This document shows, piece after piece, positions 1,276-58,827 of a stretch of 64,000 bases of DNA. Location of the stretch: the sequence record OP745617. The stretch is one strand, 5' to 3'. The translations under genes and the position numbers were made by a program. The notes beneath the pieces were generated by a model. The model was not told the DNA's origin and ran no database searches. It worked only from the letters and a program-made list of their open reading frames with translations. This DNA comes from Escherichia phage F13. The stretch's first letter is position 1. The number at the start of each line of letters is the position of its first letter.

Positions 1276-1539
1276 ATAAACACTGTTTACGTGTTTTGAA
1301 GAATGGAATGTGTGCAATGGGTCGCTTTATGCGGCCTTTTGTCGTTTGGGTCATGTTTTGCTATGGAATAATTATGAGGTTGTGTTTTATTTATTAATTG
1401 TGCGGAAATATTTAGAAATATATATAAACAGGATTGTTAATATTTTAATAGTTTATGGCTATTGGTCCGTGGTGTTTGTTAGATTCTATCTATGGATTGG
1501 ATTTTCTTGGGTCGTGAAACGTGGTTTTGAACACATTTG

Positions 1540-1990
1540 ATACGCCTAAAATACGGTTAAAAATTAAGCGTATCATGGCTGCAGGCCGCGCCGTTCCTGG
1601 ATTCCTCTTTTCCAAATTGGTACACCCTTACGTCATGATACGTCATGGTTTTTTATCCGTATCAGTGTACAACCCTTGCCGCGCCTGGCTTGTACATTAA
1701 TCTTACGGATGATACGGATAAAACTGAGCATCGTTATATATAGAATTCGAAAAATTAATTAACTCCATTTTAAAAACATTTATATTAATTTTTTTCATAT
1801 CCTCATACTTATGTTAATTTATATATTTAACGTATCATCCGTAAGATATAAGTAAAAACAAAGACTTGCGGCAATACGGATGATACGTCATGATACGCTT
1901 CAACCAGCCAGCAGCGGCTAAGTCGTTGATTTGCATAACAAGCGGCAAAAGGGATGGATTTCTTTTATACGTATCAAACAGTACACCACG
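1540..1990. repeat. Composite element A: AT-rich core (about 1735-1830) flanked by inverted repeats aatcttacggatgatacgg (1699-1718) and ccgtatcatccgtaagat (1831-1847), plus extra GGATGATACG-type copies (1629-1665, 1873-1898)
   Basis: Read directly; homologous to element B at 18055-18345 (shared aatcttacggatgatacgga and tatata-gaattc-aaa-ttaatt core). Confidence 0.8.
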
Positions 1991-2062: not shown

Positions 2063-2091
2063 TTGAATATAATGTCCATCCATTGTATAAT
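2063..2091 (+). promoter_or_regulatory. sigma70-like promoter with extended -10 (TTGAAT-N17-TGTATAAT) upstream of the TerS-like gene
   Basis: Hexamers and spacing read from sequence; the transcribed leader would contain two AATTTGCACTATG motifs. Confidence 0.4.
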
Positions 2092-2111
2092 TCACACTAT
2101 TAATTTGCACT

Positions 2112-2600
2112 ATGGGATTTTGCACTATGAGTCAAGATTATGTAGCGATGCCTGAAGACTTTGAAGACCCGCGATTCGCAGAGCACAATCAGGCTTTATT
2201 CGATGAGTTCATTGACCTTGTTATTCAGGGTCATGACATGCGCGCAGCTTTTGCACTAGTATTTGGAATGGAAGTTGCAACGGATAACTACACTGGCCAG
2301 CGAATCCTTTGCACGCAACGCAATCCATACTACAAGATGCGCTTCAAAAAGCGTATGGAAGAGATGCCACTCAAGGATTTGTGGAGCGTAAAAGGTGCAA
2401 TTCACAATTTGGTTAAGCTTGTTCGTGATCCAGAAGTCGCGGCGTCAGCCAAGCTTAATGCTATTCGTGAACTGAATATCATCTACGGCATCACGATGAT
2501 TGATGAAAACGGCAATAGTAAAATGGGCCGTTCCATGGACGATTTCTACAAGGATTTTGGAGAGGCGGCCAAAGAAGGTGAGCAATTCTCCCGCCACTAG
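2112..2600 (+). CDS. terminase small subunit-like DNA-binding protein (possible start at 2127)
   Basis: About 160 aa; NQALFDEFIDLVIQGHDMRAAFALVFGM and C-terminal AKLNAIRELNIIYGI resemble TerS (Terminase_2-type) segments; recognised from memory only. Confidence 0.4.
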   Translation: MGFCTMSQDYVAMPEDFEDPRFAEHNQALFDEFIDLVIQGHDMRAAFALVFGMEVATDNYTGQRILCTQRNPYYKMRFKKRMEEMPLKDLWSVKGAIHNLVKLVRDPEVAASAKLNAIRELNIIYGITMIDENGNSKMGRSMDDFYKDFGEAAKEGEQFSRH

Positions 2601-2619
2601 CCAATTTGCACTATAAAAC

Positions 2620-2654
2620 GGCCCTAGAACACATTTTCTCCAATTCTAGGGCCA
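2620..2654. terminator. Hairpin between convergent genes: perfect 10-bp stem GGCCCTAGAA/TTCTAGGGCC, 15-nt loop
   Basis: Inverted repeat read from sequence; no strong T-run, so terminator function is inferred from position. Confidence 0.4.
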
Positions 2655-2714
2655 TCGGTAATACGACGGGGAAGGTTACAAACATAAACGCGTTAGAAAG
2701 TGTATTATTATAAG

Positions 2715-2978
2715 TCATCTTTTAGTCACCTTACGTAACAATTTACGACCTTCAACCGTCCAATCGAACGACTCCACCAGCAGATTCGCACTATAACCTA
2801 AGACGATGCGTCCCTTCTCGTTATCGACCCGCCAACAAGTCTCGAATAGCATTCGATTTGCACTATTAACTATTGCCGCAACTCGCGTAGGATAAGCGCA
2901 ATTTGAACTATGGTCGTAAAGGGATAAGGTGCGACCACTTCCGATGGACAACGTAGCGATGAGAATGAGCGTATTCAT
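2715..2978 (-). CDS. doubtful ORF (87 aa) overlapping three copies of the AATTTGCACTAT motif
   Basis: Has a possible GGTGG RBS, but the motif copies inside suggest the region may be regulatory rather than coding. Confidence 0.2.
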   Translation of the reverse strand: MNTLILIATLSIGSGRTLSLYDHSSNCAYPTRVAAIVNSANRMLFETCWRVDNEKGRIVLGYSANLLVESFDWTVEGRKLLRKVTKR

Positions 2979-3028
2979 AAGCCACCAATTTGCACTATGA
3001 AAAGCGACCCCGAAGGGCCGCCATTCGA

Positions 3029-3655
3029 TTAGATAATCTGGAAGGTATAGGATTTGTTGCCGAACTCAAAGTTCAAGCGCCCAGCTTCCTTAAGCTTCAT
3101 GCGGAAGCGAATGTGCTTGCTATCCGGCAAGCCCAGCACGGCGAACGCTACGCGGACCGATTTGAACTCGCCTACACCCTCGACCATAACGCCGTTACGG
3201 GTGAGACGCTTTTGCGCCACTTCCTTATTATCCCAACTTTTTGCAATACCTTCGCTATTCGAACGGCGATGGGAAGGAGTTCCATTTTGCACTACGCAAT
3301 TTGCACTATCGTTTAGACCGCTCTTAACGAAGGCTTCATACTCTTCGTCGGTCATCGCGTCGAGTTCTTCCTGGGTCGGCTCGGCCTTTTTAACGACCGC
3401 ACGCGCCTTATGCGTTTTTACATCGCTGGACACTTCCTCGCGCGACTTCGCTTCGGGGATGGGCGATTCGTTGGACGGCTCATCGAGCGCGTTTAAGGAC
3501 TCGATTAACGCGATTACGCGAGTCTCGGCGGTACGGCGGTCCGCAAATTTCTTAATCGGCTTCGAACCGGAATTTGCATTATAAAATGCAACGAGGTCGG
3601 CGGTCTTAGTTGCGATAACGTCGCCGCTAGTCGAGAAACGATTTAAGCTAACCAT
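3029..3655 (-). CDS. hypothetical protein (208 aa)
   Basis: AGGAG RBS upstream of ATG at 3655; contains two tandem motif copies on the opposite strand and the TTTGCATT-N4-AATGCAAA palindrome near its 5' end. Confidence 0.6.
   Translation of the reverse strand: MVSLNRFSTSGDVIATKTADLVAFYNANSGSKPIKKFADRRTAETRVIALIESLNALDEPSNESPIPEAKSREEVSSDVKTHKARAVVKKAEPTQEELDAMTDEEYEAFVKSGLNDSANCVVQNGTPSHRRSNSEGIAKSWDNKEVAQKRLTRNGVMVEGVGEFKSVRVAFAVLGLPDSKHIRFRMKLKEAGRLNFEFGNKSYTFQII
3573..3592. promoter_or_regulatory. Palindromic operator-like site TTTGCATT-ATAA-AATGCAAA
   Basis: Perfect 8-bp inverted arms with 4-bp spacer; a dyad version of the AATTTGCA motif. Confidence 0.35.
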
Positions 3656-3735
3656 AATGAACTCCTATTTGTTAGGGCGCTAGGCGCGAAAGAATTTTAT
3701 TAAAGCGCCGCGCACGACGCTCTAAAAATCCTCTC

Positions 3736-4020
3736 TTACGCTTCGACGAGGGAGAAGGTCTCAAATTCTTCTTCGCCCATAACGAGTAAGATGTTACCGA
3801 TTTCGACCGCTTCGAAGAAGTATCCGTTAACGTTTACTTCGAAGGCTTCGCGGTCCGATTCCGGTAACGCCGCGTAAAGTTTAAAAGCCTCGGCGACCGT
3901 TACCCCACCCGCCTCGATGGTCTGGTCTACGTTCGCGGCGTAGACTTCGGATAAAATTTGTTTTACGCCGTAGTTCTCGACGATAGCGTTACGGATGGAA
4001 GAAACGTTAAGAATAGCCAT
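3736..4020 (-). CDS. small early protein, paralog family member A (94 aa)
   Basis: AGGAG RBS; preceded on the minus strand by the conserved promoter/hairpin cassette; MAILNVSSIR…EVYAANVD…VNGYFFEAVEIG aligns with the 4958-5248 product. Confidence 0.6.
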   Translation of the reverse strand: MAILNVSSIRNAIVENYGVKQILSEVYAANVDQTIEAGGVTVAEAFKLYAALPESDREAFEVNVNGYFFEAVEIGNILLVMGEEEFETFSLVEA

Positions 4021-4088
4021 TTTAAACTCCTAGTTGGGAGAGGCGTTAACGACCTATTCGCTAACTCATCCCGTCCCGATATGAGTAC

Positions 4089-4116
4089 ATTATAATATAG
4101 TGTAGAAAAAAGTAAA
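4089..4116 (-). promoter_or_regulatory. sigma70-like promoter (TTTACT-N16-TATAAT) of the conserved early cassette, minus strand
   Basis: Reverse complement of 4021-4128 is nearly identical to the plus-strand cassettes at 4548-4655 and 4851-4957. Confidence 0.5.
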
Positions 4117-4160
4117 GCACTTTTTCGATAAAAATGCGATAAATTATTTTATCTTTTTTC

Positions 4161-4188
4161 TTTACTTCTTCGTACACTCGCGTATACT
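4161..4188 (+). promoter_or_regulatory. sigma70-like promoter (TTTACT-N16-TATACT), diverged copy of the early cassette, divergent to the minus promoter
   Basis: CTTTACTTCTTCGTACACT shared with the other cassettes; followed by a GGGC…GCCC hairpin and a GGGAG RBS. Confidence 0.45.
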
Positions 4189-4244
4189 TGTTTATATCGA
4201 GACGGGCGATGGCCCTTCCTTCTACTAGCATCGGGAGCTTTATT

Positions 4245-4547
4245 ATGACTACTTTAATCTCTTCCATCCTTACTTACGACGAAGACCGTTTAACCGTTCG
4301 CTCTCTTATCGCCGCCGTTAACGCCGAACTAGAATCTAGCGCCATTAAGGTCCGCGCGGTTGCCTTCGTCGGTCTTTCCTTCGACGATATCAAGTACGCC
4401 GAACGTAGCGCCATCCGCTTCGCGAAGACCGACGACGAAGCCGTTACCCTTATCGAGACGGTTACTCCGCGCGGCGAAACGTTAATTATCGTCGAGTATA
4501 TCGACGTAGAAGGCGATAAGGCTTATAAATATTTTATCGCAAAATAA
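4245..4547 (+). CDS. small early protein, paralog family member B (100 aa)
   Basis: ATG at 4245 with GGGAG RBS (the track's 4188 start is a TTG inside the -10 element); N-terminus MTTLISSI resembles the paralogs; 3' two-thirds lies in the tandem duplication. Confidence 0.6.
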   Translation: MTTLISSILTYDEDRLTVRSLIAAVNAELESSAIKVRAVAFVGLSFDDIKYAERSAIRFAKTDDEAVTLIETVTPRGETLIIVEYIDVEGDKAYKYFIAK

Positions 4548-4558
4548 CGAAAAAGTGC

Positions 4559-4587
4559 TTTACTTCTTAGTACACTAAGACTATAAT
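4559..4587 (+). promoter_or_regulatory. sigma70-like promoter TTTACT-N17-TATAAT (cassette copy 1)
   Basis: Near-consensus -10 and 17-bp spacer; followed by the 5' UTR hairpin at 4610-4630 and AGGAG at 4644-4648. Confidence 0.55.
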
Positions 4588-4609
4588 GTTTTATATCGAG
4601 AGGGGATGA

Positions 4610-4630
4610 GGTAGCGAATAGGTCGCTACC
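4610..4630 (+). ncRNA. Conserved 5' UTR stem-loop (GGTAGCGA-ATAGG-TCGCTACC)
   Basis: Perfect 8-bp stem; the minus-strand copy (GTTAGCGA/TCGTTAAC) keeps pairing through a compensatory U-A and a G-U wobble. Confidence 0.5.
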
Positions 4631-4655
4631 CTCCCGACTAACTAGGAGAATATTA

Positions 4656-4850
4656 CGCGCGGTTGCCTTCGTCGGTCTTTCCTTCGACGATATCAAGTAC
4701 GCCGAACGTAGCGCCATCCGCTTCGCGAAGACCGACGACGAAGCCGTTACCCTTATCGAGACGGTTACTCCGCGCGGCGAAACGTTAATTATCGTCGAGT
4801 ATATCGACGTAGAAGGCGATAAGGCTTATAAATATTTTATCGCAAAATAA
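4656..4850 (+). pseudogene. Duplicated 3' fragment of gene 4245-4547 lacking a start codon
   Basis: Second repeat unit encodes RAVAFVGLSF…KYFIAK in frame, but the position matching the ATG of gene 4958 reads ACG (4655-4657). Confidence 0.45.
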
Positions 4851-4861
4851 CGAAAAAGTGC

Positions 4862-4890
4862 TTTACTTCTTAGTACACTAAGACTATAAT
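4862..4890 (+). promoter_or_regulatory. sigma70-like promoter TTTACT-N17-TATAAT (cassette copy 2, drives gene 4958-5248)
   Basis: Identical to copy 1 (offset 303 bp); hairpin at 4913-4933, AGGAG at 4947-4951. Confidence 0.55.
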
Positions 4891-4957
4891 GTTTTATATC
4901 GAGAGGGGATGAGGTAGCGAATAGGTCGCTACCCTCCCGACTAACTAGGAGAATATT

Positions 4958-5248
4958 ATGATCACTTTATCCGCTATCCGTGCCGCTCGCGTCGAAACTT
5001 CCGAAAACTCTAACGTATTTGGCGAAACCTTAGAGAGCGTTTATCTCTCTAACGTTGACGCGATTATCGAGTCTATTTATGAGCCGATCAACTTCCTCGA
5101 CCTTTACAAGTATCGCGATGAGGACATCGTGTCCTACCGCGTAACGATTAACGGCTTCGTTTATACGATTACCGAAATCGGCGGCGAATATCTCGCTGTA
5201 CCGCAACTCGGCGGCGAAGTAACTTACTTTAAAATCGTAAGCCTTTAA
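4958..5248 (+). CDS. small early protein, paralog family member C (96 aa)
   Basis: ATG with AGGAG RBS; clear similarity to the 3736-4020 product (IR-A-VE, VY-NVD-IE, NG-xxE-EIG). Confidence 0.6.
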   Translation: MITLSAIRAARVETSENSNVFGETLESVYLSNVDAIIESIYEPINFLDLYKYRDEDIVSYRVTINGFVYTITEIGGEYLAVPQLGGEVTYFKIVSL

Positions 5249-5259
5249 GGAGAAGAAAA

Positions 5260-5469
5260 ATGATTAATATGAATAACTCTCTTAACGCGCGCGCCCATCG
5301 CACCGCCGTCATCGATATGTTCCGTGAGCTTAAGGACTTATGCGATAATATGAACGCGATGTTATCCATCGGCGGCTGGGGATACGAAGAAGAAGTTAAA
5401 TATGCGGTTATGCGTCGCCGTCGCGATAACGTCCTTGGGCAAATTAAACGCGCCGGATTATTCCTTTAA
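5260..5469 (+). CDS. hypothetical small protein (69 aa, basic)
   Basis: AAGGAG RBS 8 nt upstream of ATG; followed by an intrinsic terminator. Confidence 0.55.
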   Translation: MINMNNSLNARAHRTAVIDMFRELKDLCDNMNAMLSIGGWGYEEEVKYAVMRRRRDNVLGQIKRAGLFL

Positions 5470-5495
5470 TTATAATCAACCACCGTTACTAATAG

Positions 5496-5517
5496 GCCGC
5501 GCTTAGTCGCGGCTTTT
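5496..5517 (+). terminator. Rho-independent terminator (GCCGCG-cttagt-CGCGGC followed by TTTTCTT)
   Basis: GC stem plus T-run directly after stop of gene 5260-5469. Confidence 0.6.
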
Positions 5518-5638
5518 CTTCGTCCCTATCTCGGTGCGCTCCTACGCGAAAACTCCTTTATCCTTCCCTTCGTCGTCGCATAATCTTCGTCGATATGCGC
5601 CTTAGTTCGCATAACAGGTATTACGTTAAATGGAGAAC

Positions 5639-5715
5639 ATCGCGTAAGTCCTTGTTTTATATAGACACCTATATCGGACCGTTAGGGCGGGTCGCGTAAG
5701 TCGTTGTTTTATAAA
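5639..5715. repeat. Direct repeat pair (A/G)TCGCGTAAGTC(C/G)TTGTTTTATA (5639-5663 and 5691-5715)
   Basis: Two 25-nt near-identical copies 52 bp apart in a 700-bp ORF-free region. Confidence 0.6.
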
Positions 5716-5903: not shown

Positions 5904-5991
5904 TAACGCTGGAAACTGTAACGGCGATTGATTATTGCGTTCGTGTGGTTTTTATGGCATGGGTCTTTTGGTGCGTTTTGCTACTTGATGG

Positions 5992-6103
5992 AATTTGCGG
6001 TACACTAATCAAAATACGACACATTTAGTCTACTAACTTTTCAAAGAAAAAGTCCTGGACAGTACCGTACTATTTTGTACCCACAGGAAATTTGCAGTAC
6101 ACT
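5992..6103 (+). repeat. Variant motif pair AATTTGC(G/A)GTACACT (5992-6006 and 6088-6103)
   Basis: Shares AATTTGC with the 2.1-3.6 kb motif family and GTACACT with the early promoter cassette. Confidence 0.5.
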
Positions 6104-6183
6104 CCTGCGCGCGGCAGGCAAAATAAAGGGCCGCACCAAGCGACCCACGATTCACGATTCACGGTTAAAGCAACATCCACCCA

Positions 6184-11446: not shown

Positions 11447-12907
11447 ATGAATAAAATATTAACACATAATTGGAAATTCATGTACCAGTTGAATCCTGCT
11501 TTAAAAGAAGTCTGGAAGACAAAAGCGCGATACAAAGTAATATACGGCGGTCGTGCATCTTCCAAATCGCACGATGCCGCTGGTTTTGCTATTTATTTGG
11601 CGGCAAACTTCAAATTAAAATTCCTTTGCGTTCGACAATTCCAGAACAAAATTTCTGAATCTGTATATACTCTATTAAAAGACAAAATAGAGATTTCTGA
11701 TTTCAAAGATGAGTTCAATTTATTAAAGAACTCTATTGAACATAAAAGAACTAAATCTGAATTTCTATTTTACGGTATCGCACGTAACGTTGATGAAATT
11801 AAATCAACAGAAGGTGTTGACGTCCTTTGGCTGGAAGAAGCGCACGCGCTTACTGAAGAACAGTGGGACATTATTGAGCCGACAATCCGTAAAGAAGGGT
11901 CCGAAATATGGATCATCTTTAACCCCGATGAAGAGGCCGATTTTGTCTACCAAAACTTTGTTATGCGACCGCCGAAGAATGCCATTGTTAAAAAGATAAA
12001 CTGGCAAGACAATCCATTTTTGTCGCAAACGATGCTGGACGTTATTGCAGGCATGTACGAGCGCGACCCGAAAAAGGCAGAGCACGTTTATGGCGGCGTG
12101 CCGAAGACTGGCGGCGATAAATCTGTAATCAACCGCGCATTCGTTAAGGCCGCGCTTAATCTCCACAAACACCCTACGCTGGGATGGAGTTTGTCAGGGT
12201 CTAACCGTATAGGCTTTGACGTAGCGGACGATGGCGACGACCTTAACGCCACTGCATTCGTTACAGGAAACGTATTGCGCGGCATCAAGACATGGGAAGG
12301 TCTGGAAGATGAATTGTTAAAATCGGCAAGCGGAGTTTGGAAAGATGCGCTTACATTTGGCGCTTCTATAACTTATGACGCCATCGGTGTCGGCGCTTTT
12401 GCTGGTTCAAAATTTGATGAACTGAACGAGTATGCAATACATGAAAATCCATCATTTCCAAGAATCGAATTTAATGCGTTCAATGCGCAAGGGTCTGTTG
12501 ATGATCCTGATGACGTTTTTCTTGAATTACCACACGTTGAAATACTCAATAAAGACCATTTCGCAAACATAAAAGCGCAAAAGTGGACTGAAATTGCAGA
12601 GAGATTCAGAAAGACATACGAATATGCAACTGGGCAAGCCGTATATCCGACTGATGAGTTGATTTCAATCGACACCGATGGCATACCAGAACTTGGAATT
12701 CCAGCTTGGACTACTGAAGAGATTGAGACGTTTCTTTTTGAGATGTCAGCGCCGCGCAAAGATACGTCTGTTCTTGGCAAGTTCAAAGTTGAATCTAAAA
12801 AGGATATGGCAAAGCGTGGAGTCAAATCACCTAACAAAGCGGACGCGGCAATCATGGCATTAATGAAACCAATCGTTGCAGCATCCGGCTTCTTCTCTAA
12901 CCTTTAA
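11447..12907 (+). CDS. terL: terminase large subunit (alternative start 11480)
   Basis: Walker A YKVIYGGRASSKSH, Walker B-like VDVLWLEEAH, size 486 aa and position at the head of the morphogenesis module. Confidence 0.85.
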   Translation: MNKILTHNWKFMYQLNPALKEVWKTKARYKVIYGGRASSKSHDAAGFAIYLAANFKLKFLCVRQFQNKISESVYTLLKDKIEISDFKDEFNLLKNSIEHKRTKSEFLFYGIARNVDEIKSTEGVDVLWLEEAHALTEEQWDIIEPTIRKEGSEIWIIFNPDEEADFVYQNFVMRPPKNAIVKKINWQDNPFLSQTMLDVIAGMYERDPKKAEHVYGGVPKTGGDKSVINRAFVKAALNLHKHPTLGWSLSGSNRIGFDVADDGDDLNATAFVTGNVLRGIKTWEGLEDELLKSASGVWKDALTFGASITYDAIGVGAFAGSKFDELNEYAIHENPSFPRIEFNAFNAQGSVDDPDDVFLELPHVEILNKDHFANIKAQKWTEIAERFRKTYEYATGQAVYPTDELISIDTDGIPELGIPAWTTEEIETFLFEMSAPRKDTSVLGKFKVESKKDMAKRGVKSPNKADAAIMALMKPIVAASGFFSNL

Positions 12908-13725: not shown

Positions 13726-16101
13726 ATGAAAATTCTTGGCATAAAACTCTGGGAGAAGACGCGACCAGAAGCCGAACCAGCGGAGATGCCGCCAGGCGAC
13801 CCATTGGCACCGTTTGAACGCCTTGAAAGGCGCGGCAGCGGTCAACGCTGGGAAAAGACTGAAAGCAATCGACCGACCTTTAAAACGGTTGATGACTTCC
13901 CTTTATATGAGCCTGATATTAACGGGGACGGTGTTGCAATCATCAAAGGTCGCTCAGTAGATTCAGCAACCGTATCCAAAAAAGTTATGGATAATGCCTT
14001 AAAGAACATCAGTTCAGAAGGGCAGGTGAATCCATACACAGTGCCTATTCAGTTGCAAAACTGGTACTTATCGCAATCATTTATCGGATATCAAGCTTGC
14101 GCCATCATCGCGCAGCACTGGCTAGTGAACAAGGCTTGTTCCATGGTAGGCCGCGATGCGGTCCGTAAAGGCTGGGAAGTCAAATCCAGTTCTGAGTCGG
14201 AATTGTCAGTACAGGCCAGCGAACGCTTAAAGCAAATTGATAAAGAATTTAACATCAAAGAGCACTTAGTTGAAGCCGAACGATTCAAGAATATTTTTGG
14301 CATCCGCGTCATCATATTTGATGTGCGCAGTGATGACCCAGAATATTATAGCAAACCTTTTAACATCGATGGTGTGACAAAAGGGTCTTATAAGGGAATC
14401 ATTCAGGTTGACCCTTATTGGATGATGCCATTCTTGACGTCTGAAAACACTGCAGACCCTGCGTCACAGCATTTCTATGATCCAGAATACTGGGTGATCA
14501 GCGGACAGCGTTATCATCGCAGCCACCTAATCATCTTGCGCAACGATGAGCCAGCTGATATTCTCAAGCCGACTTATATCTACGGCGGCATTCCTCTGAC
14601 TCAGCAGATTTATGAACGTATCTATGCCGCTGAACGTACCGCTAACGAAGCGCCATTGCTGGCGATGTCTAAGCGTACAACCACGCTTCGGACCGACGTT
14701 GACAAGGCGATTGCCAATGAGCGGTCGTTTGCCGAACGTCTGATGATGTGGATTAAGTACCGCGACAACTATGCAGTCAAAGTGCTTGGTCAGAAAGAAG
14801 AGATGGACCAGTTCGACATCAACTTGTCAGACTTCGACAGCATCATCATGAACCAGTACCAGCTGGTGGCCGCAATCGCAAAAGTTCCGTCGACAAAACT
14901 GTTAGGGACGTCACCTAAAGGCTTTAACGCCACTGGTGAGTTCGAAATGGTCAGCTATCACGAAGAATTGGAGACTTGTCAACAGCACGATTTGACGAAG
15001 ATTCTTGACCGCCACTATAAAATCCTTTTGAAGTCTGAAGGCGTGGAAGTCGACGTTAAAGTGGCATGGGAGCCAGTTGGTTCACTTACTGCTACTCAGC
15101 TTGCAGAGATTAACGACAAACGAGCGAATACTGGCAAGACTCTCATTGATGCTGGCGTAATCTCCCCTGATGAAGAGCGCGACCGCATCAAGGACGACAA
15201 AAACAGCGGCTACAACCGTTTGCCGGAAGATGCAGCAGAAGAAACCCCAGGGATGTCTCCAGAGAATATGGCACTGCTTGGCAAGTCTGCTGGTGAAGTT
15301 CTGCAAGGCAAGGCCGATATTGAACAGGCCAAAGCTGATGTTGTCAAGATGGGCGGCCAGTTCTATAGCGAGACTGGTATTATGCCGGAAGGTGCCGCGC
15401 GTGGTGAGTTGGCGGAAAACCCTGACAGGGCACCAGTTGAGATTAACATGGATGATACCGATGACGAATCAAGCCATCACGTTGATGTCCTAACGCAACT
15501 GAAAGAAGGTCTGGAGGGTATTGCTGACTATTACCTTAAAGAAGGTCAGGACGTGGATTTTGACCCTCAAAAAGATGCAAGGTCGGTGCAACCGTCTACG
15601 CTTCCAAGCGTAAAAGGAAATGTCGTGAACTTGCGACACAATGTAGGGAAGATGGATGCTGCATCGCTGCCTAAGATGAAGTTGCACGGGATGATTCTTG
15701 GTATTGAGAATCCTCGCAACAGCATTCGCAGGGGTAACAGCCTTGATGGTGAATGGGCAGTTAAGATGCCGCACCATTACGGATTTATCAAAGGCACCAA
15801 GGGCGCTGATGGTGATGAAGTCGACTGCTTTGTTGGACCAAACATGAAGTCGCCTAAAGTATTCATCATTAACCAAAATGATAATTATTCTGGCGAATTT
15901 GATGAACACAAGTGTATGCTTGGATTTGATTCAGCAGAAGAAGCGAAAGAAGCTTATCAGGCGTCATTTGGTAACGGTTGGAACGGATTTGACTCAATCC
16001 ACGAATTGGATGTAAACTCATTCAAGGAGTGGTTGAAGGGTGATTGCTCTCAAGCATATGGAGCACTCAACAATCCTACTAATTCACCGAAGCAAGGTTG
16101 A
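13726..16101 (+). CDS. portal protein with C-terminal inorganic-pyrophosphatase-like domain
   Basis: Large ORF directly after terL (AGGTGG RBS, ATG 13726); C-terminal ~150 aa carry GIENP…HYGFIKGTKGADGDEVDCFVG…GFDSAEEAKEAYQASF, resembling family I PPase (IEIP…YGFIP…DGDPVDVLV…GWENAEAAKAEIVASF). The portal call is from position and size. Confidence 0.6.
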   Translation: MKILGIKLWEKTRPEAEPAEMPPGDPLAPFERLERRGSGQRWEKTESNRPTFKTVDDFPLYEPDINGDGVAIIKGRSVDSATVSKKVMDNALKNISSEGQVNPYTVPIQLQNWYLSQSFIGYQACAIIAQHWLVNKACSMVGRDAVRKGWEVKSSSESELSVQASERLKQIDKEFNIKEHLVEAERFKNIFGIRVIIFDVRSDDPEYYSKPFNIDGVTKGSYKGIIQVDPYWMMPFLTSENTADPASQHFYDPEYWVISGQRYHRSHLIILRNDEPADILKPTYIYGGIPLTQQIYERIYAAERTANEAPLLAMSKRTTTLRTDVDKAIANERSFAERLMMWIKYRDNYAVKVLGQKEEMDQFDINLSDFDSIIMNQYQLVAAIAKVPSTKLLGTSPKGFNATGEFEMVSYHEELETCQQHDLTKILDRHYKILLKSEGVEVDVKVAWEPVGSLTATQLAEINDKRANTGKTLIDAGVISPDEERDRIKDDKNSGYNRLPEDAAEETPGMSPENMALLGKSAGEVLQGKADIEQAKADVVKMGGQFYSETGIMPEGAARGELAENPDRAPVEINMDDTDDESSHHVDVLTQLKEGLEGIADYYLKEGQDVDFDPQKDARSVQPSTLPSVKGNVVNLRHNVGKMDAASLPKMKLHGMILGIENPRNSIRRGNSLDGEWAVKMPHHYGFIKGTKGADGDEVDCFVGPNMKSPKVFIINQNDNYSGEFDEHKCMLGFDSAEEAKEAYQASFGNGWNGFDSIHELDVNSFKEWLKGDCSQAYGALNNPTNSPKQG

Positions 16102-16961: not shown

Positions 16962-17882
16962 ATGACGATACCAATCAACACATTCCCTCTATCTGGACAA
17001 ACTCCAGTCTTGCCTGCGGTGTATGCTAATGGCTTGGCAATTGTCTCAGAATTCACTTCTGATAAAAACTTGATTGTTCCACTGAGCCCGCCGCTTTCAT
17101 CAGGGTATAACTCAGTAGGCCAGTTCTTTATGATTGGCAATGATGGCGATTCGACCAGCAAGCCTAATCTGACATTGTCTGTACCTAAGATGAACATCAC
17201 CGACGTTCAAACTGGCTTGACTGCATCAACAATCACCATTGCTTTTGGAGAAGCAGTGATTATAGGAATGGAGTCTGGAGGGTCCAAGAATGCTGTCGCC
17301 GTTAAGGTAGTCAAATCCAGCGACAACCAATACACTTTACCAGCTGCGACGGCTTCCGTTCTCGGCGGCGTCAAAATAGGAAGCGGAATAAGCGTCGCAG
17401 GTGACGGTACAATTAGCGTAACTCAATACTCATTGCCGATTGCGTCAGCATCTACTTTAGGCGGCGTAAAGGTCGGTACAACTCTATCAATTGATGGTTC
17501 CGGTGTGCTTAACGCAGCAGCAAGCACCGTCCAGAATGCCACGAACAGTGTTAGCAATCCTCCAACCACTTTGGTTAATCTGGCAACCTTAAACCTTCCT
17601 GCAGGAAAGTGGCTTGTGACGGCAAGCCAATTGACCGTTGCAACTGCAGGCATTCAAGCGAATACCGGAATCACTGTAAAATTATCAACAAGCAATTCAG
17701 ATATTACGGATGATGCATTTACCATGTCAGCGGGTATTCGGGCTTCAGGACGTTTTGGCGGTAACGTCCCAACAAAAATGATTACTCTTGCCGCGCCTGG
17801 TAATGTGTATCTAAACTATCAGTGCACCGATGCGTTAACATCTACCGTTTACGGACAGATCACCGCAATTAAGCTGAACTAA
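16962..17882 (+). CDS. structural protein with tandem repeats (fibre- or decoration-like)
   Basis: GAGGT RBS; repeated blocks LPAATASVLGGVKIGSGISVAGDGTISV / LPIASASTLGGVKVGTTLSIDGSGVL. Confidence 0.5.
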   Translation: MTIPINTFPLSGQTPVLPAVYANGLAIVSEFTSDKNLIVPLSPPLSSGYNSVGQFFMIGNDGDSTSKPNLTLSVPKMNITDVQTGLTASTITIAFGEAVIIGMESGGSKNAVAVKVVKSSDNQYTLPAATASVLGGVKIGSGISVAGDGTISVTQYSLPIASASTLGGVKVGTTLSIDGSGVLNAAASTVQNATNSVSNPPTTLVNLATLNLPAGKWLVTASQLTVATAGIQANTGITVKLSTSNSDITDDAFTMSAGIRASGRFGGNVPTKMITLAAPGNVYLNYQCTDALTSTVYGQITAIKLN

Positions 17883-17892
17883 AGAGGAAGTT

Positions 17893-18030
17893 ATGCAAAA
17901 GATTATTCAGTCACGTTATGTTAAAGTGCGAAATATTAATTGCAACTCTTTGCTTTCTTGGAAATGGGCTGTTTATGACTCGATGTTGATTGGCGTTTTA
18001 GTGGCAGGAGTGCTATTTAATATTCACTGA
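17893..18030 (+). CDS. small membrane protein (45 aa), below the ORF-track size cutoff
   Basis: Strong AGAGGAAG RBS 5 nt before ATG 17893; MQKIIQSRYVKVRNINCNSLLSWKWAVYDSMLIGVLVAGVLFNIH with one hydrophobic helix. Confidence 0.35.
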   Translation: MQKIIQSRYVKVRNINCNSLLSWKWAVYDSMLIGVLVAGVLFNIH

Positions 18031-18054
18031 ATTCATCGGCAAAGGATTGCCGCG

Positions 18055-18345
18055 AGTTTTATACGTATAATGACGTATCATCCGTATCAAGTAAGTTGTT
18101 GTTTTCAAAAGAATCTTACGGATGATACGGATGATACGCGTTGCCGCCGTACTATATAGGAATTCAAATAAATTAATTTAAAATTATATATCTAATTTAA
18201 TTTTATTTTTTTATAAACTCTTATATATATGAAAAGTATCCGTATCATCCGTATCATCCGTAGCACACCAGTGATAGCGCGGCTTATACACCGATACGGA
18301 TAAAAATACGCCTCATTTTATCCGTATCATCCGTATCACACTAAT
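18055..18345. repeat. Composite element B: AT-rich core (about 18153-18236) flanked by inverted repeats TACGGATGATACGGATGATACG (18117-18139) and CGTATCATCCGTATCATCCGTA (18241-18262), extra copies at 18072-18091 and 18316-18340
   Basis: Read directly; homologous to element A. Confidence 0.8.
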
Positions 18346-18395
18346 AAAGGCGCGGCTATATCGGTTGTTATACATATTCAAACCATAATTATTGT

Positions 18396-18424
18396 TTGCC
18401 TAAGTTTTTTTCATTAGATATAAT
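18396..18424 (+). promoter_or_regulatory. sigma70-like promoter TTGCCT-N17-TATAAT upstream of the scaffold/capsid genes
   Basis: Located between element B and ATG 18454. Confidence 0.4.
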
Positions 18425-18453
18425 ACACAATACTTATTTGAGGGTGGATGCGA

Positions 18454-19869
18454 ATGCAAACGGCACGCGAAATTGACAAAAATGGATTCTTGACGATTAT
18501 GGGTTGTCCGATTTCGTCATTTGGCATTTTTGATTATTCTGCTGGTCAAGTTGGTCTTGATGGTGATCCGAATCGCATCGTAAAAGTCTATCGCCCTGAG
18601 TCAGCGGTGAAAGACCCCGAAGCGATAGATTCATTCAAAAATATCCCTTTCATCGACAATCACGAAATGCTTTCTGGATTTGAAGGTGATGAGGATAACA
18701 CAGCACCCGAAGAGTATGGCGTTGATGGCGTTCTGACTGGCAATGTTTATTATGACAAGCCATGGATGCGCGGCGACCTTAAAGTGTTTAGCCGTCGTCT
18801 GAAGAAGGCCATTGATTCTGGAAAGGTTGACTTGTCTTTGGGCTATGACTGTGAATTCATCATACAGTCTGGAGAGTTTGACGGGCAGCCGTATGAAGTG
18901 GTGCAGACAACTCTTCGCGGCAACCACATTGCTCTCGTGGACGTTGGTCGAGTACCAGGTGCACGGGTGCTGGATGGTCGTTGCTTTGACCATCTTTGTT
19001 TGACGACTGTAACACCATCCAACGAGGATTTAGACATGCCAAAACCGTTAAAAGGTAAAGCGCGTGATAATGCTGTTGAACAGCTGAAATCACTGATCCC
19101 TGCGCTCGAACAATTTCTGAACGAAGAGAGTACTGAAGCTGCTCATCAGGACGAAGTTGAAGTGAAAGCAGAAGAGAAGGACTCAACCGAAAATCGTGAA
19201 GAAGTAATGGTTGATCCAGAAGTCAAGGCAGAAGCAGAAGAAACCCCAGAAGGTGAAGAGAAGTTTGAAGTTGAAACTGAATCTCACGCTGGCGGCGAAC
19301 TTCCGCAATTGATCAGCCAAATCGAAGCACTTATTGCAAAACTGAAAGGTGGCGCGGTAGGTGATGAAGAAGAAGTTGAAGCCGAAGTCAAAGACGAAGA
19401 AGAAGTTGAAGTCAAGGCTGAAGATGTATCACCTTGCGACAAAGCTGAAGATGTGGTTAGCGGCCTGCAAAACAGCAACGTAAAGGGGGCTTCGGTCGAA
19501 AAAGATGACAAACCGACAAAAGCGGCGAAAGCGTCGCCAGGTCCAGCAAAAGGGGAACACTCAATGGCATCTGATTCAGCAGTTGCTGCTTTCTACGCTG
19601 ATTCTGCTCGTAAGAATAGCCTCTACCAGCGCCTGTCTAAAGTTGTTGGTGCCTTTGATCATGCAACTATGGACTCCAAGTCCGTAGCGAAATATGGCGC
19701 TAAAAAGTTAGGCTTGAAGTGCGTTGATGGTGCTGAGTTTGACGTGGTGGATAATTATCTGCGCGGCGTTGAGCACGGTCAGAAACAGCGTGTAGTCGCA
19801 AAACAAAAGGCCGCTGCGGATTCTGCAGCAACTGACGAAGCATTTGAAGCTTGGTTGAAAGGGGAATAA
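18454..19869 (+). CDS. putative scaffolding/prohead-processing protein with acidic central region
   Basis: GGGTGG RBS then ATG 18454; long Glu/Val/Ala-rich acidic stretch typical of scaffolds; position before capsid genes. Confidence 0.45.
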   Translation: MQTAREIDKNGFLTIMGCPISSFGIFDYSAGQVGLDGDPNRIVKVYRPESAVKDPEAIDSFKNIPFIDNHEMLSGFEGDEDNTAPEEYGVDGVLTGNVYYDKPWMRGDLKVFSRRLKKAIDSGKVDLSLGYDCEFIIQSGEFDGQPYEVVQTTLRGNHIALVDVGRVPGARVLDGRCFDHLCLTTVTPSNEDLDMPKPLKGKARDNAVEQLKSLIPALEQFLNEESTEAAHQDEVEVKAEEKDSTENREEVMVDPEVKAEAEETPEGEEKFEVETESHAGGELPQLISQIEALIAKLKGGAVGDEEEVEAEVKDEEEVEVKAEDVSPCDKAEDVVSGLQNSNVKGASVEKDDKPTKAAKASPGPAKGEHSMASDSAVAAFYADSARKNSLYQRLSKVVGAFDHATMDSKSVAKYGAKKLGLKCVDGAEFDVVDNYLRGVEHGQKQRVVAKQKAAADSAATDEAFEAWLKGE

Positions 19870-19871
19870 AC

Positions 19872-20489
19872 ATGACTTTCCAAACTAGTGTAGGCCGTCA
19901 ATATACAACTGGCTTTCCTGGCGACATCGTTCGCGACGGCCCACAGCGTGGGAAGCCAGGCCGAATCGTTAGCGCCAACGACGGTGCAAACGTAAACGCC
20001 ATCAGCCGTGTGTTTGGTTTTAAGGCTGACGTGTCATTAATGGGTACTGGCCAGACCAAAACCTTGGGCGCGCAGGACTTTGAAGTTGAACTGGGCGGCA
20101 CCAATTACTATGGCATCCTTGGCAACAGCAAGCGTTACGCTCTGTATGGCAACTCTACTGGTCCTTTGGGTGCCAGCATGGTTCTGCCTCAATATAGCGA
20201 AGGCGAGTTCTACGATATGTGCACGGGCCTCGTAGTTGAAGTGTTCAACCCAAGCACCAGTCCGCAGACGCTGAACTACGGCGACCTGCTCGCTTATGTA
20301 CCTAAAGGCATTTCCAGCGGTAACAACCCGAACAACTTGCCTATCGGTGCAATTATCGCCTATACTGGCTCACTGCCAACTGGCATGGTTGCCATTCCAG
20401 GCGGTATCGTGATTGACCCGACTGCTATTGCCCTTTCCGGCCCAAGCGTCCAGTCTTCCACTTATACCATTGTACAATTGACTCGTTAA
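19872..20489 (+). CDS. head protein (decoration or minor capsid), hypothetical
   Basis: AAGGGG RBS, ATG 19872; lies between the scaffold-like and major capsid-like genes. Confidence 0.45.
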   Translation: MTFQTSVGRQYTTGFPGDIVRDGPQRGKPGRIVSANDGANVNAISRVFGFKADVSLMGTGQTKTLGAQDFEVELGGTNYYGILGNSKRYALYGNSTGPLGASMVLPQYSEGEFYDMCTGLVVEVFNPSTSPQTLNYGDLLAYVPKGISSGNNPNNLPIGAIIAYTGSLPTGMVAIPGGIVIDPTAIALSGPSVQSSTYTIVQLTR

Positions 20490-54941: not shown

Positions 54942-55074
54942 TTGTCCTTTGTGGGTGATATGAGAAGTATAATAGCTAAATTATTTTACAGCAACAAGTC
55001 ATTTCTATTTAGTACAGACGAAAAAGACCCACAACAAGTGTGGGTCAATTACCGCTATATAACCGTCCTACAGG

Positions 55075-55920
55075 TTATTCCGCTTGATCACCGTCTTCGG
55101 CATTGTCGTTGGATTCAACATCGACAAACTCGATGTGGCCCATCTCTTCCAGCTTGCTCAGGTAGGAGCGAACGGAAGCGCCAAACAGTTGATCTTTAAC
55201 TTTTTCGCCCAGCTCATCGATAGACTGCGCCACGCCAACTTCGCCTTCTTTGATCGCCGCCAGAACGCGTCCACGGGTGGAATGCTCTTGCGGCTGGCTC
55301 AGGCCATTGCCGGTGTAGATGAAGTGAGTGGCTTTTGCACGACGCTGACCGTTTGCCTTTTTAGCAGCCTTGCGCTCTGCGATGGCTTTGCGACGTTCTT
55401 CAGCTTCTTTCTTACGCTGTTCTTTCTGCTGTTCTGCAGCTTCTTTAGCCGCAATCTTAGCAGCTTCACGCTCTGCCTTGCGTTTCGCTTTAGCTTCTTC
55501 TTTGGCCTTCTCTTTTTCGGCCTTCGCTGCAGCACGGGCTTGATCACGCTCTGCTTTCTTGGCCGCAGCCTGCTCAGCTTTCAGGCGCTTGGCTTCTTCT
55601 TTAGCCTTTGCCTTTTCGATTTCTTTTGCTGCTTTAGCGGCTTCACGCTCTGCTTTCTTAGCAGCAGCCTTTTCTGCACGCTCTTTAGCTTTCTTAGCTG
55701 CTTCTTCAGCACGCTTCTGCGCCTTCTCATCAGCAGCCTGCTTGCGTTTCAGCGCAGCTTCTTCACGCTTGGCTTGTTTTTCCTGCTCACGCTTCTGGCG
55801 CTTCTCTTCGGCTTCTTTCTTTTTAGCCAGGCGTTTTTCTTCAGCCACGCGACGACGTTCTGCTGCGGCTGCTTGTTTTTCTTCTTTAGATAATACTTTG
55901 ATTGCTTCGGCCATATTCAC
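55075..55920 (-). CDS. Lys/Ala/Glu-rich low-complexity protein with globular C-terminal domain (histone H1/TolA-like)
   Basis: About 180 aa of KAE repeats (…EEKRQKREQEKQAKREEAALKRKQAADEKAQKRAEEAAKKAKERAEK…) then a ~90-aa non-repetitive domain. Confidence 0.5.
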   Translation of the reverse strand: MNMAEAIKVLSKEEKQAAAAERRRVAEEKRLAKKKEAEEKRQKREQEKQAKREEAALKRKQAADEKAQKRAEEAAKKAKERAEKAAAKKAEREAAKAAKEIEKAKAKEEAKRLKAEQAAAKKAERDQARAAAKAEKEKAKEEAKAKRKAEREAAKIAAKEAAEQQKEQRKKEAEERRKAIAERKAAKKANGQRRAKATHFIYTGNGLSQPQEHSTRGRVLAAIKEGEVGVAQSIDELGEKVKDQLFGASVRSYLSKLEEMGHIEFVDVESNDNAEDGDQAE

Positions 55921-55983
55921 AGTCCTTAAATAAATTAGTTTATTTTATATTCCCCGTTTGGGATAACTTAATTATGCCTTCAG

Positions 55984-56018
55984 TTGCCGCCAGTAGCAAC
56001 TAAAAACTATGGCGGCAA
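55984..56018 (-). other. Hairpin TTGCCGCCA-(17 nt)-TGGCGGCAA between the Dda-like and KAE-rich genes
   Basis: 9-bp GC-rich inverted repeat in the intergenic region. Confidence 0.35.
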
Positions 56019-57258: not shown

Positions 57259-57584
57259 TATAACTCCACTACGCTTTCAAGGTCCAGATATACTGGAATA
57301 AAATGGCAATCTTCTTTTCGTTCAAACATCTCACCATCAACATGGCTGAAGAAAACAGTTGTGTTTGGTATCTTCCATCCTTTCTCGTCGCGCACTAAGT
57401 ACGCCATGGATTCAACAGGGATGTACAGCGATACCGGATTTGCGGCAAAAATAAATTTGATTCTGTCTGGTTGGCCCAGAAATCGCATGATTGTTAGGCT
57501 TGAATTCAATCTTGTATTAAGGAAGGACTCAACGATTCCGACGTGTGTTGCACGTTCGCGTTGCTTCGTCTCTTTTTCGTTCAT
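57258..57584 (-). CDS. hypothetical protein (108 aa)
   Basis: First gene of the minus-strand replication operon. Confidence 0.45.
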   Translation of the reverse strand: MNEKETKQRERATHVGIVESFLNTRLNSSLTIMRFLGQPDRIKFIFAANPVSLYIPVESMAYLVRDEKGWKIPNTTVFFSHVDGEMFERKEDCHFIPVYLDLESVVEL

Positions 57585-57687
57585 TTCAGGCGACCTTTGT
57601 TAGTGCGGAAATATTTTCTGATAGTATAATTGCAGATATAGTATAAAGCAAAGTAAATCGAAATTGTGAACTAAATGGTAAATATTG

Positions 57688-57715
57688 TTGACTTTGTATC
57701 ACTCAATATTATACT
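57688..57715 (+). promoter_or_regulatory. sigma70-like promoter TTGACT-N16-TATACT for the plus-strand primase operon
   Basis: Hexamers in the 160-bp divergent intergenic region. Confidence 0.4.
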
Positions 57716-57744
57716 GCAGGTATTGATCACCAAAGGAAAGAAAG

Positions 57745-58827
57745 ATGGCTAGTTTAAGAGAAGAAGCAAAAATAATTGAAGAGTTTTTAACAGAACTCCA
57801 GAGAGGCATCCCAGAAGATGAGCGCGTCATGACGGTGTTTGCTCCTGAAGCAACGGTGCAGACTGACGAGCGCGGAAAGAAGATTAACAGCAGCTTCTGG
57901 CCTAAGCCTTGGAAGTTGGGCAAGCCGCTCATGCAGCACCAAAACGGCTATGCTTGCATCAGTTCAATGCGTAAGTCTCCCAACCCAAAGACGGGTGAGA
58001 TGCGATACTGGCGTACAGAGTCGGCCTTTGGTCACGGTATGGCGATGATGGTCGACGACATCGGTCACGGTAAAGGGTCCAAAGGCGATTTAGATTTGGA
58101 ATTCTTTTTTGAGCGACTGAAGCCGACTGTCATCGTCGAGACTTCACCGAACAACCACCAGCTTTGGTACTTCTTTAAAGAACCGATTGACCATCTTATT
58201 CAGTTCAAAGCGTTCCTTGGGTCTTTCGTTAACATGGTACTCAAGAAGGGCGGCGACAACACGATTAAAGACGTAACGCGCGTGGGCCGTGTTCCTGGGT
58301 GCATCAATAACAAGCGTGTGACTCACGACGGCCCCTATAAATATGTCGATGAGAACGGCGACCCGTTCCGCTGCCGACTTGTCCATGCAGACTACTCCTT
58401 GCGCTACACCATCGAAGACATTTGTCACGCATTTGGCTTTCACGTCGTCATGCCGCAAAAGCGTGAGATTCAAATTGACGTCGATGAATACAAGTATGAT
58501 GCCGTTTGGTATAAAATAGCCCAGCAGATTCTGGCGCGCAACAAGATGGGTGAAGGGTCTGATGGCGACGTCATCGAGAATATGTCAGGCAAGTGCCGCA
58601 TAATCTGTCCTTGGGGTGAAGAGCACACCAACGGCGACCCGTATGGCGCGTACTTTCGCGGCCCTATCCCTGGTGCAGAACATGAATTTGTGTTCGGTTG
58701 CGCCCACGACTGTCACCGGAAAGGGGAAGGCAAGAAAGGTTGGACTGCTTTTGTTGAAGCAATCGTCATGCCTTATATTGAGAATCAACTTGACATGATA
58801 AATCGTCGTGCAGGTGGCATAAAATAG
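57745..58827 (+). CDS. DNA primase, archaeo-eukaryotic primase (AEP/prim-pol) type with C-terminal zinc ribbon
   Basis: MAMMVDDIG, SPNNHQLWYFF and RVPGCIN resemble AEP motifs; C-terminal CRIICPW…CAHDCH; AAGGAAAG RBS. Confidence 0.55.
   Translation: MASLREEAKIIEEFLTELQRGIPEDERVMTVFAPEATVQTDERGKKINSSFWPKPWKLGKPLMQHQNGYACISSMRKSPNPKTGEMRYWRTESAFGHGMAMMVDDIGHGKGSKGDLDLEFFFERLKPTVIVETSPNNHQLWYFFKEPIDHLIQFKAFLGSFVNMVLKKGGDNTIKDVTRVGRVPGCINNKRVTHDGPYKYVDENGDPFRCRLVHADYSLRYTIEDICHAFGFHVVMPQKREIQIDVDEYKYDAVWYKIAQQILARNKMGEGSDGDVIENMSGKCRIICPWGEEHTNGDPYGAYFRGPIPGAEHEFVFGCAHDCHRKGEGKKGWTAFVEAIVMPYIENQLDMINRRAGGIK

Follow-up and report, generated by a model that had tools for sequence, protein, structure and literature searches.

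What is the role of the non-coding gap that separates a small ORF from the head genes of Escherichia phage F13 (OP745617)? The gap, at positions 18031-18447 (417 nt) of the 64,000-nt stretch of this genome that was analyzed (the window), holds an inverted repeat around an AT-rich core, here called element B. The initial annotation, which was made from the sequence alone, had described B as the second copy of an element A, had found the two copies to be united by lying before packaging or head genes, and had proposed a shared regulatory or packaging role for them. The window belongs to Wifcevirus; it has 100% identity to vB_EcoM_SP13 over positions 17000-20000, and there are 28 related records. 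The gene neighborhood previously proposed for B was recovered, with a 45-aa ORF (17893-18030) on the left and the head maturation protease/scaffold gene (18448-19869) on the right, and so was the sigma70-like promoter downstream of B. A terminator-like hairpin with a T-run ends the upstream transcription unit after the 45-aa ORF and forms the left boundary of the non-coding gap.

The inverted repeat is exact, at 18117-18138 and 18241-18262, as had been noted; only the end of the left arm had to be moved, by one base, from 18139 to 18138. The two arms are 22 nt each, are 100% complementary and lie 102 nt apart, the left arm being TACGGATGATACGGATGATACG and the right arm its reverse complement. 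Both are built of tandem 9-mers (TACGGATGA, complement ATCCGTATC). Because additional 9-mer units are found outside the arms on both sides (the outer iterons of Table 1), the extent of B was enlarged to a non-coding element of ~270 bases at approximately 18066-18345. The whole element has about eleven ATCCGTATC units, which occur in both orientations. From left to right, the core consists of a short G+C-rich spacer (CGTTGCCGCCG), an edge motif that is conserved (TATATAGGAATTC, 18153-18165) and a run of ~75 nt made up almost entirely of A and T. Of all 80-nt stretches in the window, the one richest in A+T (91%) sits inside this core, which is a candidate DNA-unwinding region.

Table 1. Positions of element B, its twin and associated features in the window.
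Feature	Position	Strand	Remarks
Element A, paralogous copy	1538-1976	.	CGTATCA-type iterons in both orientations around AT core 1720-1829
Small terminase subunit gene (terS)	2130-2600	+	Directly downstream of A; mapped from Mansfield homologue
Terminator-like hairpin and T-run	18037-18062	+	Stem 18037-18052, tail CGAGTTTTAT
Outer left iteron pair of B, CGTATCATCCGTATCA	18074-18089	+	Inverted relative to left arm
Left arm of B, AATCT then TACGGATGA x2.4	18113-18138	-	9-mers facing core
Core of B between arms	18139-18240	.	102 nt, 81% A+T
Right arm of B, ATCCGTATC x2.8	18238-18262	+	Iterons facing core; exact complement of left arm
Outer right iterons of B	18293-18338	.	GATACGGAT (-) 18293-18301, ATCCGTATCATCCGTATCA (+) 18320-18338
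Sigma70-like promoter, TTGCCT-17-TATAAT	18396-18424	+	Promoter scan; protease/scaffold/capsid operon
RepB'-type (archaeo-eukaryotic) primase gene	57745-58827	+	Pfam PF16793, E = 4e-36
VapE-like/SaPI Rep1-like initiator-helicase gene	60137-61807	+	Pfam PF05272, E = 1.6e-28

The 9-mer ATCCGTATC occurs nine times in the 64-kb window (0.32 expected) and the 16-mer six times (0.05 expected). Within the window, all copies of either are confined to element A (1655-1719) or to B. No 9-mer copies were found in the 4.7 kb of genome beyond the window, and a k-mer scan of the window gave A and B as its only iteron clusters. The flanks of A and B have the capacity to form hairpins because their iterons are inverted. 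In B, the outer left pair (18074-18089) has the potential for a 16-bp hairpin with 18123-18138, and the outer right iterons (18293-18301 and 18320-18338) together have the potential for a 13-bp hairpin; folded as ssDNA the two flanks have z-scores of -5.8 and -3.1, respectively. A known structured RNA at B was ruled out by an Rfam scan of 17850-18500, which returned only sub-threshold plant miRNA hairpin models (16.9-29.5 bits versus gathering scores of 80-200), matches that arise from the long inverted repeat. A strong promoter inside B was also ruled out: the scan gave nothing better there than a 9-of-12 site, and as many hits as the region has are expected from shuffled sequence. Inspection by eye for a DnaA box gave TTATCCGTA, which is two positions off the TTATCCACA consensus.

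Element B is under purifying selection. Across 11 Wifcevirus genomes ~5% of the columns are variable in 18066-18450 and ~6% in the core (18139-18240), whereas the share among third codon positions is 10% for the protease gene and 55% for the upstream fibre gene. No change is seen in the right arm or in the outer right iterons in any of the 11 genomes. Changes in the left arm are restricted to one substitution (Mansfield) and the loss of one 9-nt unit (Bas101, window 18117-18125); as Bas101 is one unit short, the repeat number can evidently shift by whole units with viability kept. The downstream promoter lies outside the repeat architecture and is likewise invariant in the 11 genomes. The terminator stretch differs between Wifcevirus clades, whereas element B itself does not.

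The resemblance between the cores of A and B reported in the initial annotation is real and is collinear. Both copies have the order outer iteron, AATCTTACGGATGATACGGAT, TATATAG(G)AATTC, AAATTAATT, AT-rich run, CGTATCATCCGTA, GATACGGAT, ATACGC. Variation in element A is greater on the left side of its arm, and B is the better conserved copy. The left arm of A in Mansfield is nearer to that of B than to that of the window's A, which points to exchange between the copies. Taken as homologous copies, as had been proposed, A and B almost certainly share one trans-acting factor. The link to packaging that had been suggested for the pair also stands in the case of A, at which records begin (window 1767) and downstream of which terS is found.

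The left end of the genome, where the direct terminal repeat begins, falls between 1766 and 1767 (TTAATTAACTCC/ATTTTAAAAAC, the slash marking the end), in the middle of the AT core of A. Two public Wifcevirus records, Mansfield and WFC, both begin at window position 1767. The Mansfield ends are a PhageTerm prediction. WFC was deposited with a terminal repeat of ~3.7 kb and with no stated basis for its ends. At the left end, A carries the end motif TTAACTCC/ATTTT. This motif is absent from B, as is the sequence AACTCC that precedes the end in A. In a relative with a Rep protein 75% identical, the A-type copy has kept the end motif (AAATTAACTCC/ATTTTGAAAAC) while the remaining core differs. The terS gene begins 360 nt past the left end, and its homologue in Mansfield (361-834) is annotated as such, with an HHpred probability of 100 to the Sf6 small terminase subunit. 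Counted from the left end, the spacing between A and B is ~16.4 kb.

The position of the right boundary of the terminal repeat is less certain than that of the left, since the values given by Mansfield (~5965) and WFC (6049) are ~85 nt apart. A third copy of the element at this boundary (~5965-6049) was looked for and rejected, there being no 9-mers and no AT core. A motif AATTTGCrGTACACT is present near the right boundary at 5995-6015 and 6090-6105 and is found also at 4172, 4570 and 4873. The SP13 record (OP352608, 72,384 bp) has window positions 2069-5666 repeated at both of its ends; because it is offset by ~300 nt from the Mansfield and WFC ends, this redundancy was probably not set at physical ends. 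Inside the terminal-repeat region, 4353-4955 is a perfect (100%) 303-bp tandem duplication that appeared as the one non-coding k-mer cluster besides A and B, and each 303-bp unit holds a promoter-like CTTTACTTCTTAGTACACT...TATAATGTTTTATATCGAGAGGGG block. The duplication probably explains why the repeat region is longer here than the 3,673 bp of Mansfield. A second repeat family surrounds terS: TTGCACTA occurs eight times, on the + strand only, in 1.2 kb around the gene (2104-3308) inside the terminal repeat, and a relative has three tandem copies of the TTTGCACTAT-family site directly before its own terS start (15182-15219 in its sequence). This TTTGCACTAT family is a candidate terminase or regulator site, distinct from the 9-mers.

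A two-copy layout is found in four phage lineages, namely Wifcevirus, Myosmarvirus, Pbunavirus and a BcepF1-like Burkholderia phage, across which the protease is 41-53% identical. The A-type copy lies between the gene for the VapE-like helicase (rep) and terS, or the ORF in the terS position, terS being annotated as such in Mansfield only; the B-type copy lies just upstream of the prohead protease gene. In phages MTx, HTN4 and Karil-Mokiny-1 the A-type copy is directly downstream of rep. The repeats are common to both copies of a genome, but each lineage has its own (ACGAAAAGTAA in MTx, GGTAATTTGG in HTN4 and TAGTTACT in Karil-Mokiny-1). Judged from these genome sequences, the pair is ancient and syntenic. 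The A-type copy is equally well defined in the four lineages by its position downstream of rep, and we therefore do not retain the location before packaging or head genes as the unifying feature of the pair.

In Serratia phage MTx (Myosmarvirus), the protease of which is 53% identical, the record was opened at the PhageTerm terminal-repeat boundary, and the end-start junction rebuilds an element homologous to the protease-proximal one. The two MTx copies have, among other blocks, CTTTTCGAAAAATGCAAACGTAAA, TAAAAACGAAAAG, TTTCAAATCTCGGTAGCTATAAGGAA and AGTAATAAGTAACCCAATATAGA in common, and the physical end (PhageTerm) falls in the core of the A-type copy. The protease-proximal copy is present in MyoSmar too. 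The 65.7 kb of Pbunavirus HTN4 contain the motif GG[GTA]AA[AT]T[TA]GG nine times, with 9/9 occurrences in two loci that can be aligned collinearly: 11499-11698, upstream of the protease gene, and 57522-58047, between the VapE-like gene and a putative terS. An HTN4 'hypothetical protein' (ABMZ59_76, record 57543-58196) spans the A-type element and is probably a spurious ORF; the same 1 kb is non-coding in LBL3. Upstream of its protease gene, Karil-Mokiny-1 (BcepF1-like) has TAGTTACT-type iterons that build a perfect inverted repeat of 19 nt; a related array is found directly 3' of the VapE-like gene. The protease slot of Xanthomonas phage XcP1 does not contain the element. A core motif TATA(T)AG(G)AA is seen 20-23 nt to the left of the mapped ends in Wifcevirus and MTx and in a loose form in HTN4 and Karil-Mokiny-1; it was set aside as a cross-genus motif, being too short and too AT-rich.

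Pbunavirus is headful and circularly permuted in most reports. Since it nonetheless retains both copies, the pair is independent of fixed ends and of a terminal repeat. Some Pbunavirus records open within the elements: Pa193 and BrSP1 (NC_048675.1) start at the identical base of the A-type core, CAGCGAAAAT/CGATTGC, and E215 starts at AACGTTC/CAATAGAATTC in the B-type core. No terminal redundancy was found in the end stretches examined of the E215 and Pa193 records, and the papers on BrSP1 and Pa193 do not explain why the records begin where they do. An IMG/VR Wifcevirus contig (3300045988_152943, 68,520 bp) starts and stops exactly at the arms of B. Assemblers thus break at these arms, and record starts must be taken as physical ends with caution.

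The window encodes two proteins that could act at such a site. The 556-aa product of the VapE-like gene matched one solved structure by sequence, PDB 7PDS (SaPI1 Rep1-DNA, E = 4e-11). Its AlphaFold2 model (pLDDT 87) returned 7PDS as the top Foldseek match (E = 3e-16 over ~480 columns, TM 0.5-0.62), followed by the primase-helicases NrS-1, D5/E5 and PriRep5. Among 50 homologues the C-terminal 120 residues are the least conserved part of the protein, which fits the lineage-specific iterons, as expected of a specificity domain. Residues 436-504 of the model form a helix-strand-helix-helix-strand-strand unit, a putative DNA-binding domain. This Rep-like helicase is the candidate for the iteron-binding protein. 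The primase gene is upstream of the rep-like gene, with ~1.3 kb between them; its product matches the solved RepB' structures weakly by sequence (E ~0.4). In this window A is separated from rep by ~8.7 kb of small genes, and B is >20 kb from it.

The closest parallel to this combination is found in the staphylococcal pathogenicity island (SaPI) replicons. SaPI Reps (Rep1/PriRep5) are self-loading initiator-helicases that recognize short iterons through a C-terminal winged helix. Their origins comprise an AT-rich center and six to twelve of these iterons, at least two per side and in opposite directions, and the gene order is pri, rep, ori, with the origin just downstream of rep (PMC9371898). 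Element B has the same arrangement of at least two iterons in opposed directions on each side of an AT-rich center, and the window has both an initiator-helicase homologous to Rep1 by sequence and fold and a primase gene upstream of rep, in the pri-rep order of the SaPIs. Unlike a SaPI origin, B is not immediately 3' of rep, whereas the A-type copy is so placed in MTx, HTN4 and Karil-Mokiny-1. The phage elements also depart from SaPI origins in the length of their iterons (9 nt instead of 5-6 nt), in their number of two per genome, one of them at the genome terminus, and in the location of B within the head-gene cluster; the phage has a RepB'-type primase, and the genome is that of a virulent 68-kb myophage and not of a satellite.

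Origins that consist of two separate sites are known from other systems. In P4, ori and crr are both bound by the primase-helicase alpha and are both needed in cis, and in SPP1, oriL and oriR are bound by G38P. As in P4 and SPP1, the phage pair consists of two distant loci that share repeats, here candidate initiator-binding sites, beside AT-rich DNA. The primase offers a further comparison. In RSF1010, RepB' primes on two hairpin-forming inverted repeats (ssiA and ssiB) on complementary strands after the origin melts (PMC8567376). The phage has a RepB'-family primase (PF16793), and there are hairpin-capable inverted iteron pairs on both flanks of B. Homologues of RSF1010 RepC or RepA were not identified.

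The architecture of the element, together with the encoded Rep1-like helicase and RepB'-type primase, is the reason that replication initiation is favored. We propose, with a probability of about 0.5, that the Rep-like helicase binds B and that B serves as a second origin or as a site accessory to one. This reading is further based on the confinement of iteron clusters to A and B, the four-lineage synteny, the retention of both copies by the mostly headful Pbunavirus, the selection on B, the lack of the end motif in B and the exchange between the copies. The Rep1-like self-loading helicase would read the 9-mers through its variable C-terminal winged-helix region, assemble on both flanks and then melt the AT core. 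The RepB'-type primase would start synthesis on the strands thus exposed, the hairpin-capable inverted iterons of the two flanks being possible sites, and the Pol III-type polymerase of the phage would extend the primers. B may itself fire as a second origin, or it may bind Rep as a partner of A, much as crr is paired with P4 ori and oriR with SPP1 oriL. A has the architecture of B plus the end motif, at which the left end of the packaged DNA would be made. The location of B between a terminator and the head-operon promoter could shield it from read-through transcription. Several observations count against an origin: the distance of B from rep, the length of the iterons relative to those of SaPIs, the missing element at the XcP1 protease slot, and the placement of repeats around a cleavage region, which is also pac-like. 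The same can be said of the constant position of A-type copies before terS or the corresponding ORF, of the genome ends or record starts that lie within cores, and of the pac site predicted in Pbunavirus SCUT-S1. In addition, GC-skew analyses of Pbunavirus pointed elsewhere, although skew in these genomes tracks the direction of transcription.

The pac-like appearance raises the possibility that the 9-mers bind the small terminase subunit and that the large subunit cuts the AT core, with A as the active left-end site and B as a weaker or disabled one, perhaps an alternative packaging start or a terminase reservoir by the head genes. Repeats lie on both sides of the cleavage region in P1 pac and in SPP1 pacL-pacC-pacR, and the T7 concatemer junction (phiOR/pacB) has an origin-like promoter and an AT-rich element near the end, with a part in end formation. 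Copy A resembles the P1 and SPP1 sites in having repeats that flank the cleavage region and in being near terS. The Mansfield and WFC starts at 1767 in A, the PhageTerm end of MTx in its A-type copy, and the presence of terS, or of an ORF in its position, after the A-type copy in all four lineages are as expected of a terminase site. So are the Pbunavirus records that open in the A-type core (Pa193 and BrSP1) or in the B-type core (E215), and the pac site that PhageTerm placed in Pbunavirus SCUT-S1, reported to be 'in an AT-rich region'. However, such record starts may be assembly breaks at AT-rich inverted repeats, and no end has been reported at B in any Wifcevirus or other terminal-repeat phage. 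Unlike the P1, SPP1 and T7 sites, B has neither a mapped end nor the A-specific cut motif, which is kept at the A end even in a diverged relative, and its repeats are unrelated to theirs in sequence. If a second, fully conserved pac site lay 16 kb inside the genome, truncated or misphased genomes would result, yet of the two copies it is B that is better conserved. Moreover, the TTTGCACTAT family, with six + strand copies at 2104-3308 around terS, is an alternative candidate for terminase recognition. We consider terminase recognition by the 9-mers a serious rival but rather unlikely, and the packaging role that had been suggested for both copies finds no support for the pair as a whole, because B lacks TTAACTCC/ATTTT and Pbunavirus retains the pair while being mostly headful and permuted.

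A regulatory function is suggested by the surroundings of the two copies, each of which is preceded by a terminator-like hairpin and followed by the strong sigma70-like promoter of a late-type operon. The 9-mers could be operators that time or boost the near-consensus sigma70 promoters 150-250 bp downstream of each copy (that of the head operon, Table 1, and that of terS, 2046-2091), with the AT core as a bendable or UP-like spacer or a loop. The hairpin-element-promoter layout is repeated in MTx, MyoSmar and Pbunavirus, all of which have an equivalent promoter 3' of the element; the promoter and 5' UTR are invariant along with the element; and the annotators of Pbunavirus predicted sigma70 promoters inside both gaps. 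Control of transcription would nevertheless leave unexplained the genome end in the A core, the tracking of rep by the A-type copy and the 100 nt of near-pure A+T between head-to-head arrays. No good promoter is found inside the element, and no candidate regulator was identified, so that operators are, in our estimation, distinctly improbable as the main role. The terminal inverted repeats around a non-coding core, the two copies per genome and the exchange between them would also be seen in a selfish or neutral repeat, either a MITE-like palindrome or a functionless duplication homogenized by gene conversion. Against such a repeat are its confinement to one pair of syntenic slots, the same in four lineages with proteases 41-53% identical, its stronger conservation than that of synonymous sites, and the lack of a target-site duplication flanking the arms; we regard it as extremely improbable. 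A host-borne mobile element was ruled out: there was no match in 5,426 complete E. coli genomes, and an exact 16-mer search of IMG/VR returned only Wifcevirus genomes and single chance matches, the element being absent from unrelated viral contigs.

The preferred reading, paired origins, suggests an extension that we put forward as a doubtful one. The A-type origin and the packaging start may be one module in PB1-like phages, with the terminase making the left end there. If this were true, local re-initiation from the A-type origin would copy the ~3.7-4.3 kb stretch that becomes the direct terminal repeat, and the B-type twin would be a second Rep-loading site that may also be cut in headful relatives (as the E215 record might indicate). 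Such a replication-driven route to long terminal repeats would account for the switching between terminal repeats and headful packaging among close relatives.

In the open-access literature no paper describing these elements was found. Ceyssens-era annotations of Pbunavirus have predicted promoters alone in both gaps, and one earlier paper, on Pbunavirus SCUT-S1, mentions in passing an AT-rich region as pac or origin. Elements of this kind are known, and what is new is the conserved pairing, the copy in the head module and the coincidence of its twin with a chromosome end. Phages of Wifcevirus and Pbunavirus are in use, or have been suggested, for therapy and diagnostics, and work to rebuild them synthetically is under way; assembly in vitro and rebooting have been published for vB_Eco4M-7 (PMC11074155). 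Their origin has so far been undefined, and reports on their genome ends conflict. For these phages a probable initiator (the SaPI-Rep1-like helicase) and primase can now be named, and the two conserved non-coding modules are parts that any genome redesign must retain. The location of A at the chromosome start may mean that this phage group couples the start of replication to the formation of chromosome ends, and the lineage-specific iterons, together with the variable Rep C terminus, provide a natural system for studying origin-initiator co-evolution.

Other repeat clusters in the window were considered as rival origins and rejected. The one at 4353-4955 is the perfect tandem duplication described above, and those at 19.15-19.40 kb and 55.4-55.8 kb are inside coding sequence. 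The last of these (55370-55790) is a cluster of short repeats (AAGAAGC and AGAGCGTG), is accompanied by an AT skew of -0.38 over 55001-56000, and is probably a repetitive minus-strand coding segment.
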